NCBI RefSeq assembly: GCF_000026545.1
Contig: NC_011601.1
From: Escherichia coli O127:H6 str. E2348/69
GTDB taxonomy: Bacteria > Pseudomonadota > Gammaproteobacteria > Enterobacterales > Enterobacteriaceae
Reading direction: 5' to 3' (one strand)
DNA: 64,000 bases
Shown here: positions 43,574-47,401 of the stretch, piece by piece
Numbering within the stretch: position 1 is the stretch's first letter
How the letters are laid out: every line of letters begins with the position of its first letter
The notes under the pieces: model-generated
What the model was told of the DNA's origin: nothing
The model's database searches: none
What the model saw: only the letters and a program-made list of their open reading frames with translations
Program-made: the position numbers and the translations under genes

Positions 43574-43653
43574 TCCAACATTGCGAGCGGCGCAAAGCCG
43601 CCGCTATACTAAAACAACTTTTTGAATCTGTTAGCCATTTTGAGGATATAAAG

Positions 43654-44061
43654 ATGCGTCTTCTTCATACCATGCTGCGCGTTGGCGATCTGCAACGCTC
43701 CATCGATTTTTATACCAAAGTACTGGGCATGAAACTGCTGCGTACCAGCGAAAACCCGGAATACAAATACTCACTGGCTTTTGTTGGCTACGGCCCGGAA
43801 ACCGAAGAAGCAGTGATTGAACTGACCTACAACTGGGGCGTGGATAAATACGAACTCGGCACTGCTTATGGTCACATCGCGCTTAGCGTTGATAACGCCG
43901 CTGAAGCGTGCGAAAAAATCCGTCAAAACGGGGGTAACGTGACCCGTGAAGCGGGTCCGGTAAAAGGCGGTACTACGGTTATCGCGTTTGTGGAAGATCC
44001 GGACGGTTACAAAATTGAGTTAATCGAAGAGAAAGACGCCGGTCGCGGTCTGGGCAACTAA
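43654..44061 (+). CDS. gloA: glyoxalase I (lactoylglutathione lyase)
   Basis: 135-aa ORF starting [21 protein letters not shown]. Confidence 0.96.
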
Positions 44062-44163
44062 TCTCCTGCCGGGCGTGAACTCCTCGCGCCCGCATCTTTA
44101 CTGCATCGACAAGTAATATTTGTCATAATGCGCGCTGCAATTTATCCGTATTAAGAGAATCAG

Positions 44164-44811
44164 ATGTCCGATAACGCTCAACTTACCGGTCTGTGCGACC
44201 GTTTTCGTGGTTTTTATCCTGTTGTGATCGATGTTGAAACAGCCGGATTTAACGCCAAAACCGATGCGCTGCTTGAGATTGCCGCCATCACCCTGAAAAT
44301 GGATGAACAAGGCTGGCTGATGCCGGACACCACATTACATTTCCACGTCGAACCATTTGTCGGCGCAAATTTGCAACCAGAGGCCCTTGCCTTCAACGGT
44401 ATTGACCCGAACGATCCCGATCGCGGCGCGGTCAGCGAATACGAGGCGCTGCACGAAATTTTTAAAGTTGTACGTAAAGGTATTAAAGCGAGCGGCTGTA
44501 ACCGCGCCATTATGGTGGCGCACAACGCCAATTTCGATCACAGCTTTATGATGGCCGCCGCAGAACGCGCCTCACTGAAACGTAACCCGTTCCACCCTTT
44601 CGCCACTTTTGACACTGCGGCACTGGCCGGGCTGGCACTCGGACAAACCGTATTGTCAAAGGCTTGCCAGACAGCTGGCATGGACTTCGACAGCACCCAG
44701 GCGCACTCCGCGCTGTACGACACCGAACGCACTGCTGTGCTGTTTTGTGAAATCGTCAACCGCTGGAAACGTCTGGGAGGCTGGCCACTACCTGCCGCCG
44801 CAGAGGTGTAA
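44164..44811 (+). CDS. rnt: ribonuclease T
   Basis: 215-aa ORF, DEDDh exonuclease fold. Confidence 0.95.
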
Positions 44812-44903
44812 TCGAGTCGATGCCTGATGACATGCAATGATTCAGGCATCTATAGTGAGGCTATTCCACGCATCATGCATGATATTCACGGGGAATAGCG
44901 TTA

Positions 44904-45132
44904 ATGGCAAATAATCCAAACCCTTCATCGCCCCTGCCGGACGTGTTTTCACCGGCGACCCGCGACTGGTTTCTTCGCGCCTTTAAACAGCCGACAGCTG
45001 TCCAGTCGCGAACCACGGCTGCGCTTTACGCTAACAGAAGTGAATGACCTACCGGTCCGGCAAACGCCGATGTTTACGCGGTTACGTGAGGCGGGATTTT
45101 CAAGTTCGCCACAAGGGCTGGATTGGGGATAG
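44904..45132 (+). pseudogene. lhr: remnant of ATP-dependent helicase Lhr: 5' 102 bp and 3' ~127 bp joined out of frame
   Basis: ATG at 44904 encodes MANNPNPSSPLPDVFSPATRDWFLRAFKQPTAVQ, the Lhr N-terminus as I recall it, then stops after 47 codons; the +1 frame gives a C-terminus-like ...VRQTPMFTRLREAGFSSSPQGLDWG* ending at 45132. Confidence 0.7.
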
Positions 45133-45140
45133 AGAAAGGA

Positions 45141-45167
45141 CTGACGGATGCCCGTTCGCATCCGTCA
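45141..45167. terminator. bidirectional hairpin between the lhr remnant and grxD
   Basis: ctgacggatg ... catccgtcag inverted repeat. Confidence 0.5.
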
Positions 45168-45182
45168 GTATTGCAGGACGGA

Positions 45183-45530
45183 TTATTCCGCGTCCGGCTC
45201 TTCAGACTTGTATTTAGCGGCAGTTTCTTTGATCAGCTGCTGCAGTTCACCACGCTGATACATTTCGATCACGATATCACAACCGCCCACCAGCTCGCCG
45301 TCAACCCACAGTTGCGGGAAGGTCGGCCAGTTCGCATATTTCGGCAGTTCCGCACGAATGTCCGGATTCTGCAGAATATCAACATAGGCAAAACGTTCGC
45401 CACATGCGGCAAGCGCCTGGACTGCCTGGGCAGAGAAACCGCAGCTCGGCAGTTTCGGTGAACCTTTCATGTACAGCAGGATCGGGTTTTCAGCAATCTG
45501 GCGTTGGATTTTTTCGATAGTGGTGCTCAT
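45183..45530 (-). CDS. grxD: monothiol glutaredoxin Grx4
   Basis: 115 aa, CGFS active-site motif (..PSCGFSAQ..). Confidence 0.96.
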   Translation of the reverse strand: MSTTIEKIQRQIAENPILLYMKGSPKLPSCGFSAQAVQALAACGERFAYVDILQNPDIRAELPKYANWPTFPQLWVDGELVGGCDIVIEMYQRGELQQLIKETAAKYKSEEPDAE

Positions 45531-45864
45531 TGTCTTGCTTCCTCAAACTTCTTTACGGCAGTAATCTGACATTGTAGCGGGTCAGTGCGGCATCGGAAAA
45601 TAACATTTTCATCACGCTTTTGCTATTTTATCCCTTTGCTCTATTTGTTGCATTTCAAATATTCGTTTCTTCCCTGATGCACGGCAAACTGGCGTATTTA
45701 TAACCATTTTTAGCTTTCACTGCTGCATTTTTTTGCGCTCGCCGACGAAACGTATTTTTTAACAATAAAAGCTATTAACTTTCTCTTCTTCTATGCATTA
45801 GAATCATCAAGTTTTGTGAATCAGACGCAGGCATGATAGACCTGCCTTAACAGAGGGACGCTCA

Positions 45865-46692
45865 GTGGCGCGGATAAACCGTATTTCGATCACGCTCTGT
45901 GCTTTACTTTTTACCACCCTGCCTTTAACGCCTATGGCCCATGCTTCAAAGCAAGCCAGGGAGAGTTCTGCTACCACTCATATCACCAAAAAAGCAGATA
46001 AAAAGAAAAGCACGGCAACCACCCAAAAGACCCAGAAAGCCAGCCAGAAAACAGCGAAAAAAGCCGCCAGTAAAAGTACGACCAAAAGCAAAACCGCTTC
46101 TTCCGTTAAAAAATCTTCCATTACCGCTTCTAAAAACGGCAAAACTCGCAGCAAACACGCCGTCAATAAAACGGCCTCAGCCAGCTTTACCGAAAAGTGT
46201 ACCAAACGTAAGGGCTATAAATCGCATTGTGTGAAAGTCAAAAATGCCGCGTCAGGAACCCTTGCCGACGCGCACAAAGCGAAGGTGCAAAAAGCCACAA
46301 AAGTGGCAATGAATAAACTGATGCAGCAAATTGGTAAGCCATATCGTTGGGGTGGCAGCTCACCGCGTACCGGTTTTGATTGCAGCGGTCTGGTTTATTA
46401 CGCTTATAAAGATTTGGTGAAAATTCGTATTCCGCGTACGGCGAATGAAATGTATCACCTGCGCGATGCAGCGCCAATCGAACGTAGTGAACTGAAAAAC
46501 GGCGACCTGGTCTTCTTCCGTACTCAGGGACGCGGTACAGCCGATCATGTCGGCGTGTATGTCGGCAACGGCAAATTTATTCAGTCACCGCGCACGGGCC
46601 AAGAAATTCAAATCACTTCTCTCAGTGAAGACTACTGGCAGCGCCACTATGTTGGCGCTCGCCGGGTAATGACCCCAAAAACACTTCGCTAA
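45865..46692 (+). CDS. mepH: NlpC/P60 peptidoglycan DD-endopeptidase MepH (YdhO)
   Basis: 275 aa: signal peptide, K/T/S-rich low-complexity linker, C-terminal NlpC/P60 domain. Confidence 0.9.
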   Translation: MARINRISITLCALLFTTLPLTPMAHASKQARESSATTHITKKADKKKSTATTQKTQKASQKTAKKAASKSTTKSKTASSVKKSSITASKNGKTRSKHAVNKTASASFTEKCTKRKGYKSHCVKVKNAASGTLADAHKAKVQKATKVAMNKLMQQIGKPYRWGGSSPRTGFDCSGLVYYAYKDLVKIRIPRTANEMYHLRDAAPIERSELKNGDLVFFRTQGRGTADHVGVYVGNGKFIQSPRTGQEIQITSLSEDYWQRHYVGARRVMTPKTLR

Positions 46693-46819
46693 AACTTTAC
46701 CCTGTTGTTACGGCAACAGGGTAAGTTCATCTTTTGTCTCACCTTTTAATTTGCTACCCTATCCATACGCACAATAAGGCTATTGTACGTATGCAAATTA
46801 ATAATAAAGGAGAGTAGCA

Positions 46820-47401
46820 ATGTCATTCGAATTACCTGCACTACCATATGCTAAAGATGCTCTGGCACCGCACATTTCTGCGGAAACCATCGAGTATCAC
46901 TACGGCAAGCATCATCAGACTTATGTCACTAACCTGAACAACCTGATCAAAGGTACCGCGTTTGAAGGTAAATCACTGGAAGAGATTATTCGCAGCTCTG
47001 AAGGTGGCGTATTCAACAACGCAGCTCAGGTCTGGAACCATACTTTCTACTGGAACTGCCTGGCACCGAACGCGGGTGGCGAACCGACTGGAAAAGTCGC
47101 TGAAGCTATCGCCGCATCTTTTGGCAGCTTTGCCGATTTCAAAGCTCAGTTTACTGATGCAGCGATCAAAAACTTTGGTTCTGGCTGGACCTGGCTGGTG
47201 AAAAACAGCGATGGCAAACTGGCTATCGTTTCAACCTCTAACGCGGGTACTCCACTGACCACCGATGCGACTCCGCTGCTGACCGTTGATGTCTGGGAAC
47301 ACGCTTATTACATCGACTATCGCAATGCACGTCCTGGCTATCTGGAGCACTTCTGGGCGCTGGTGAACTGGGAATTCGTAGCGAAAAATCTCGCTGCATA
47401 A
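46820..47401 (+). CDS. sodB: iron superoxide dismutase
   Basis: 193-aa ORF starting [36 protein letters not shown]. Confidence 0.98.

Follow-up and report, generated by a model that had tools for sequence, protein, structure and literature searches.

The window analyzed here is a 64-kb stretch from E2348/69 (O127:H6, enteropathogenic E. coli), and K-12 lhr served as the reference for comparison. In the window, gloA (43654-44061) is followed by rnt (44164-44811, plus strand), which encodes RNase T as an intact 215-aa open reading frame (ORF) and is annotated at the matching position in E2348/69. Downstream of rnt lies grxD (45183-45530, minus strand), a convergent and intact 115-aa ORF for monothiol glutaredoxin 4, whose protein accession, WP_000108172.1, is annotated in both E2348/69 and K-12. 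The next genes are mepH (45865-46692) and sodB (46820-47401). The order gloA-rnt-[stub]-grxD-mepH-sodB is identical to that of K-12, in which rnt is the upstream neighbor of lhr, the usual linkage of the two genes (PMC7437997). The K-12 interval from the rnt stop to the grxD stop is 4,759 bp long and contains the 4,617-bp lhr, while its counterpart in the window, from the rnt stop at 44811 to the grxD stop codon that begins at 45183, is 371 bp (44812-45182). The first-pass annotation, which had placed an lhr of about 4.6 kb between rnt and grxD in K-12 and had pointed out that the gap here is 371 bp, was therefore correct on both counts. As a separate observation, mepH is 828 nt (275 aa) long in the window and in E2348/69 and 816 nt long in K-12 DH10B; the 12-nt difference presumably lies in the Lys/Ser/Thr-rich low-complexity N-terminal region.

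The gap holds both ends of lhr. Rather than failing to align, the 371 bp align with K-12 lhr at the two gene ends, and the alignment, which the first-pass annotation had proposed, maps the junction between them. The rnt-lhr intergenic spacer (44812-44903, plus strand) is retained unchanged and is colinear with K-12. It is followed by an lhr 5′ fragment (44904-45004, plus strand), consisting of the start codon and the rest of nt 1-101, that is, codons 1-33 and two bases of codon 34. The 3′ fragment (45007-45132, plus strand) contains codons 1498-1538 and the TAG stop, and lies in the +1 frame relative to the start. In total, nt 1-101 of lhr are retained in the stub and are joined to nt 4490-4617 at window positions 45005-45009, and the retained parts have a DNA identity of ~97-98% with K-12 lhr. 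When the K-12 Lhr protein was searched against the window by tblastn, aa 1-37 matched at 44904-45014 (86% identity, E 3e-14) and aa 1498-1538 matched at 45007-45129 (97.6% identity, E 5e-19), and the two matches occupy different frames. No further Lhr-like sequence was found in the 64-kb window, since the remaining tblastn matches had E values of ~1 or worse.

The residual, frameshifted ORF (44904-45047, plus strand) has the 47 codons that the first-pass annotation had counted for its Lhr-like start: 34 are Lhr codons and 13 are out of frame, and they are followed by a TGA. Its product would read MANNPNPSSPLPDVFSPATRDWFLRAFKQPTAVQ, then SRTTAALYANRSE, and end there. The C-terminus-like tail that had been placed in the +1 frame was also found, with the translation REPRLRFTLTEVNDLPVRQTPMFTRLREAGFSSSPQGLDWG up to the TAG at 45130-45132; it shares 97.6% identity with the C-terminus of K-12 Lhr. 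Because the deletion is 2 mod 3 in length, the 41-codon tail cannot be translated from the lhr ATG. The locus has the marks of an lhr pseudogene, namely significant homology to both gene ends at the orthologous rnt-grxD position, a disrupted reading frame, and signs of relaxed constraint.

Compared with K-12 lhr (b1653; an SF2 helicase / uracil-DNA glycosylase of 1,538 aa), the stub shares the slot between rnt and grxD, the start region, the last 41 codons and the stop; it differs in the loss of nt 102-4489, 95% of the gene, including helicase motifs I-VI and almost all of the C-terminal domain, and in its broken frame. From the functional SF2 helicase core (motifs I, II, III and VI; EcoLhr aa 1-877), what is left in frame is aa 1-34, the deletion having taken motif I (APTGSGKT, ~aa 51-58 in K-12) and all residues from there to aa 1497. 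From the C-terminal domain (aa 878-1538, including the glycosylase residue D1536), codons 1498-1538 remain, out of frame. With all SF2 helicase motifs and almost the entire C-terminal domain lost, the stub can give no Lhr activity. The absence of the helicase core from the stub makes the strains that carry it natural lhr nulls.

We determined the junction by BLAST and by base-by-base alignment to K-12, which gave two colinear blocks: the left block starts upstream of rnt and ends at window position 45014, and the right block starts at 45005 and runs through grxD. The size of the deletion is 4,388 bp (2 mod 3), corresponding to the loss of lhr nt 102-4489 or, equivalently, nt 107-4494. The first-pass annotation had suggested a single internal deletion of roughly 4.4 kb with a junction near 45005 and had recommended a search for microhomology; the size and the position (45005-45009) agree with that suggestion, and a 10-bp imperfect direct repeat with a GTCGC core is present at both breakpoints. 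In K-12, the repeats are GCCGCAAACC at lhr nt 102-111 and GTCGCGAACC at nt 4490-4499, with 8 of the 10 positions matching. The other intact or partly intact alleles that we compared (O145 RM8995-C1, FDAARGOS_1370, EcPNK004, CFSAN004176 and TUM1881) have GTCGCAAACC as the left repeat and GTCGCGAACC as the right one, so that 9 of 10 positions match, including a perfect GTCGC core. The consensus is GTCGC[A/G]AACC, and in intact alleles a distance of 4,388 bp separates the two copies. The window keeps a single copy at 45005-45014 (plus strand), in the right-hand version GTCGCGAACC. Since the base at 45004 is specific to the left side and the base at 45010 is specific to the right side, the crossover took place within GTCGC, at 45005-45009. 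In the alignment to K-12, there is no filler DNA and no insertion sequence (IS) element at the junction.

A repeat at both breakpoints, one copy of which is kept with nothing inserted, is the arrangement of a deletion between short direct repeats. From this anatomy, the event would have been one 4,388-bp deletion between two short direct-repeat copies in an intact lhr, by RecA-independent replication slippage or by illegitimate recombination between short direct repeats, leaving one repeat copy behind and inserting no foreign DNA. The loss of 2 mod 3 nucleotides would then have left a start codon from which 34 Lhr codons, 13 nonsense-frame codons and a stop are read. Deletions of this type were reportedly described for E. 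coli lacI in classic work by Albertini and colleagues in 1982. The lhr junction resembles those of the lacI type in that the repeats flank the deleted segment, one copy is kept in the product, and IS or filler DNA is absent. In contrast to them, the lhr repeat is imperfect, with a perfect core of 5 bp, the deleted span is 4.4 kb, and the mechanism is read from the anatomy of the junction. As the ancestral B2 allele is no longer to be seen, the true microhomology may have been anywhere from 5 to 10 bp long. Nested, successive deletions that ended in one final junction may also have occurred, as they would look the same from a single junction. Taken together, the comparison with K-12 confirms what the first-pass annotation had noticed, and it supports its deletion reading and refines it to the base. 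We are highly confident that 44904-45132 is a dead lhr remnant that arose from one 4,388-bp short-repeat deletion and was inherited by the lineage of E2348/69, 536 and O25b:H4 (phylogroup B2).

On the question of whether the stub has a function, we compared six carrier alleles that belong to different sub-lineages, namely those of the window, 536, O25b:H4, S87, Z135-5 and NQ3. The gap is exactly 371 bp long and has the same junction in all six, and the alleles differ at 10 sites. The lhr N-terminal fragment has the highest density of single-nucleotide polymorphisms (SNPs) at the locus, with 7 of 101 sites variable, followed by the rnt 3′ part (6/252), the lhr C-terminal fragment (2/128), the grxD part (2/277) and the rnt-lhr spacer (0/92). 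In strain 536, TGG is changed to TAG at 44968, which turns W22 into a stop, and there are three amino-acid changes within codons 1-5. In O25b:H4, S87, Z135-5 and NQ3, CAG is changed to TAG at 45003, which turns Q34 into a stop. The 47-codon ORF is therefore not conserved, as different carriers have acquired different stop codons.

The alternative in which the stub is kept as a functional element, either as a 47-aa micropeptide or as a regulatory or 3′UTR-derived RNA of the rnt transcript, has two points in its favor: the start codon, the upstream spacer and a promoter-like site in it are preserved, with none of the 92 spacer sites varying, and the length is invariant among the six carriers. 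Against it are the two truncations of the ORF, at codon 22 and at codon 34, and the SNP density of the N-terminal fragment. In the larger set of carriers described below, moreover, the identity of the junction 100-mer is 95-99% in 559 of 1,039 genomes, compared with 99% or more in 480. The search for a structured RNA was also negative. A scan of 44600-45400 against Rfam at a permissive threshold returned no family, the only hit being a chance hammerhead match at 16.6 bits, where the gathering score is 52, and the rnt-lhr spacer folds no better than shuffled sequence (z = -1.27). A functional stub is thus very unlikely, and a functional micropeptide was rejected because other carriers have acquired independent stops in the ORF. 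We regard the stub as neutral wreckage; it is in decay and is not a conserved small gene, and it has drifted after the deletion, gaining different stop codons in different sub-lineages.

The promoter-like match in the spacer, at 44827-44856 on the plus strand, reads ATGACA-18-TATAGT and is σ70-like, with 10 of 12 positions matching. A 9-bp inverted repeat, with arms at 44819-44827 and 44842-44850, overlaps it. On the basis of the fold z-score of the spacer, we make no claim of an attenuator. The promoter-like site and the inverted repeat could be a retained lhr promoter or a 3′ element of rnt.

Downstream of the tail, a hairpin at 45140-45169 occupies the convergent lhr/grxD spacer. It has a 12-bp perfect stem with 7 GC pairs and a 6-nt loop, and its free energies are -22.7 and -22.0 kcal/mol, with z = -3.1 on the plus strand and z = -4.6 on the minus strand. 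The surrounding spacer, 45133-45182, is identical to that of K-12. The first-pass annotation had described a terminator hairpin after the tail. The hairpin is real, but its T-rich tail, CCTTTCTCTA, is found on the minus strand only, whereas the plus-strand tail is ATTGCAGG, so that on the rnt/lhr strand there is a hairpin without a U-tract. With its T-rich tail on the minus strand only, the hairpin is a canonical intrinsic terminator of grxD. As a result of the deletion, the distance between rnt and this hairpin has shrunk from ~4.8 kb to 371 bp, and rnt transcripts now probably run through the stub to the convergent grxD hairpin.

The survey of other E. coli genomes that had been suggested for this allele was carried out on a collection of 5,426 complete E. 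coli genomes, with a 100-mer centered on the junction as the probe. We found the junction 100-mer in 1,039 of the 5,426 genomes, with one occurrence per genome. Internal lhr DNA is present in 4,385, and at least 80% of it is covered in 4,382 of those. The two classes are essentially complementary, together accounting for 5,424 of the 5,426 genomes, and in these genome counts at most two places were matched per genome. These counts, together with the absence of lhr from E2348/69 in Touchon et al. 2009 (PMC2617782), speak against an intact lhr elsewhere in the genome, which the first-pass annotation had named as a refutation. The rnt/grxD flanks are found in 5,425 of the 5,426 genomes; the one genome left gave no match to the rnt-grxD region at all. 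We also noted that at least 80% of the 3.1-kb locus is covered in 1,041 genomes, compared with the 1,039 that contain the junction, so that a short allele of another kind is present in two further genomes. In a side observation, the sole plasmid match for gloA-rnt-stub-grxD-mepH, a chromosomal housekeeping locus, is NZ_CP090612.1 (420,355 bp, pig), which is probably either a piece of a chromosome deposited under the label of a plasmid or a chromid-like replicon of very large size.

The named junction carriers include E2348/69, 536, O25b:H4 and O25:H4 strains, MP1 and O127:H6. We take E2348/69, 536, O25b:H4 and MP1 to be phylogroup B2 strains. The deletion would then have been a single event in the ancestor of the E2348/69, 536 and O25b:H4 lineage (phylogroup B2), inherited by all sampled descendants. 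In the flanks (252 nt of rnt and 277 nt of grxD), carriers differ from one another at 0-6 positions, compared with 5-11 positions between the groups; the ranges overlap, and these 529 bp hold too few informative sites to establish monophyly of the carriers. The strain names, together with the small strain set of the 2009 study that scored the loss (Touchon et al. 2009, PMC2617782), suggest that the allele may be B2-wide and B2-only.

The distribution also bears on the quality of the assembly. The short gap could be a 4.4-kb collapse or misjoin in one assembly of a strain that is truly lhr-intact, a general possibility that the first-pass annotation had raised and that nothing else favors. The identical junction in 1,039 independently assembled complete genomes excludes a misassembly. 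Among them are three separate assemblies of the E2348/69 / O127:H6 chromosome, to which the window is 100% identical over 43600-46700. In addition, lhr does not contain long internal repeats prone to collapse, the only repeat being the 10-bp one, and an artefact thus has practically no chance of being the explanation.

Outgroup genomes are expected to have an intact lhr between rnt and grxD. The opposite polarity, with the short form as the ancestor and lhr as a later insertion into the rnt-grxD gap of the non-B2 lineages, could appeal to the controversy over the most basal E. coli group noted in Touchon et al. 2009 (PMC2617782), owing to which the E. coli tree does not by itself set the polarity; it is vanishingly improbable because the stub consists of the first 34 and the last 41 of 1,538 codons, at 86-98% amino-acid identity and in two frames, because an insertion cannot create two out-of-frame gene ends, and because the same paper scored lhr as absent specifically in B2. 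The two out-of-frame gene ends fix the polarity of the event as a loss.

Outside the junction carriers, lhr is well kept, with sporadic and independent lesions. Z142-1 has an IS1 (IS1A) insertion in lhr, and O145 RM8995-C1 has an lhr frameshift (494-5109 of the retrieved locus). CFSAN004176 has a 1,798-bp lhr deletion with a 1-bp junction overlap (5578-8395 of the retrieved locus); its rnt-lhr spacer is 15 bp shorter. TUM1881 has a 3,458-bp lhr deletion with no junction overlap (2794-3952 of the retrieved locus) and may be one of the two genomes with another short allele. These non-B2 lesions are natural inactivations of lhr too, but they differ from the B2 deletion in that they are sporadic, have other junctions and are not lineage-wide.

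The loss of lhr itself is already known, annotated and published, and only the base-level junction is new; the first-pass annotation was unaware that the gene loss had been annotated, is lineage-wide and was in print. Table 5 of Touchon et al. 2009 (PMC2617782; PLoS Genet 5:e1000344) gives lhr as specifically absent in group B2; E2348/69 was considered, according to a footnote, and lhr was reported absent from it, and the supplement lists Lhr/ECK1649. In RefSeq/PGAP, the stub is annotated as two partial pseudogenes, 44904-45014 (missing C-terminus) and 45007-45132 (missing N-terminus), with the N-terminal fragment labeled ‘endonuclease’ and the C-terminal fragment labeled ‘ATP-dependent helicase’. 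Both fragments are also annotated in 536, O25b:H4, S87 and NQ3; in Z135-5, the annotation covers only the first. The product name ‘endonuclease’ is misleading, as the alignment gives the first 37 codons of Lhr. Both the published B2 loss and the PGAP fragments concern the identical locus and the identical strain, E2348/69 included. Within the searchable text and supplements of Touchon et al. 2009, we did not find the junction bases, the breakpoint repeat, the frequency of 1,039 in 5,426 or the secondary nonsense mutations. Likewise, our search of the Lhr biochemistry papers (PMC8053096, PMC10953399) yielded no mention of a natural B2 lhr knockout.

The RNA:DNA helicase and glycosylase activities of Lhr were established in 2021-2023 (PMC8053096, PMC10953399). 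EcoLhr is a 3′-to-5′ translocase/helicase that prefers RNA:DNA hybrids, with the activity residing in aa 1-877 (PMC8053096), and it is a uracil-DNA glycosylase that requires D1536 (PMC10953399). Deletion of lhr leaves MG1655 mildly sensitive to AZT and raises its sensitivity to H2O2 10-100-fold (PMC10953399). Roughly a fifth of complete E. coli genomes are natural lhr nulls, and caution is called for when K-12 Lhr genetics is extended to pathogenic E. coli, as lhr is absent in the carriers, including E2348/69, 536 and O25b:H4. The exact junction could be used as a simple PCR or k-mer lineage marker; apart from this use, the stub is a routine and already recorded pseudogene. That the loss of Lhr was adaptive for the B2 ancestor, instead of neutral, seems unlikely to us. 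If it were true, the loss of an enzyme that protects K-12 from H2O2 and AZT might have changed, for example, mutation or recombination behavior or rnt expression in the lineage from which the major extraintestinal pathogens arose, and B2 strains would either have a compensating activity or be intrinsically more sensitive to oxidative DNA damage.
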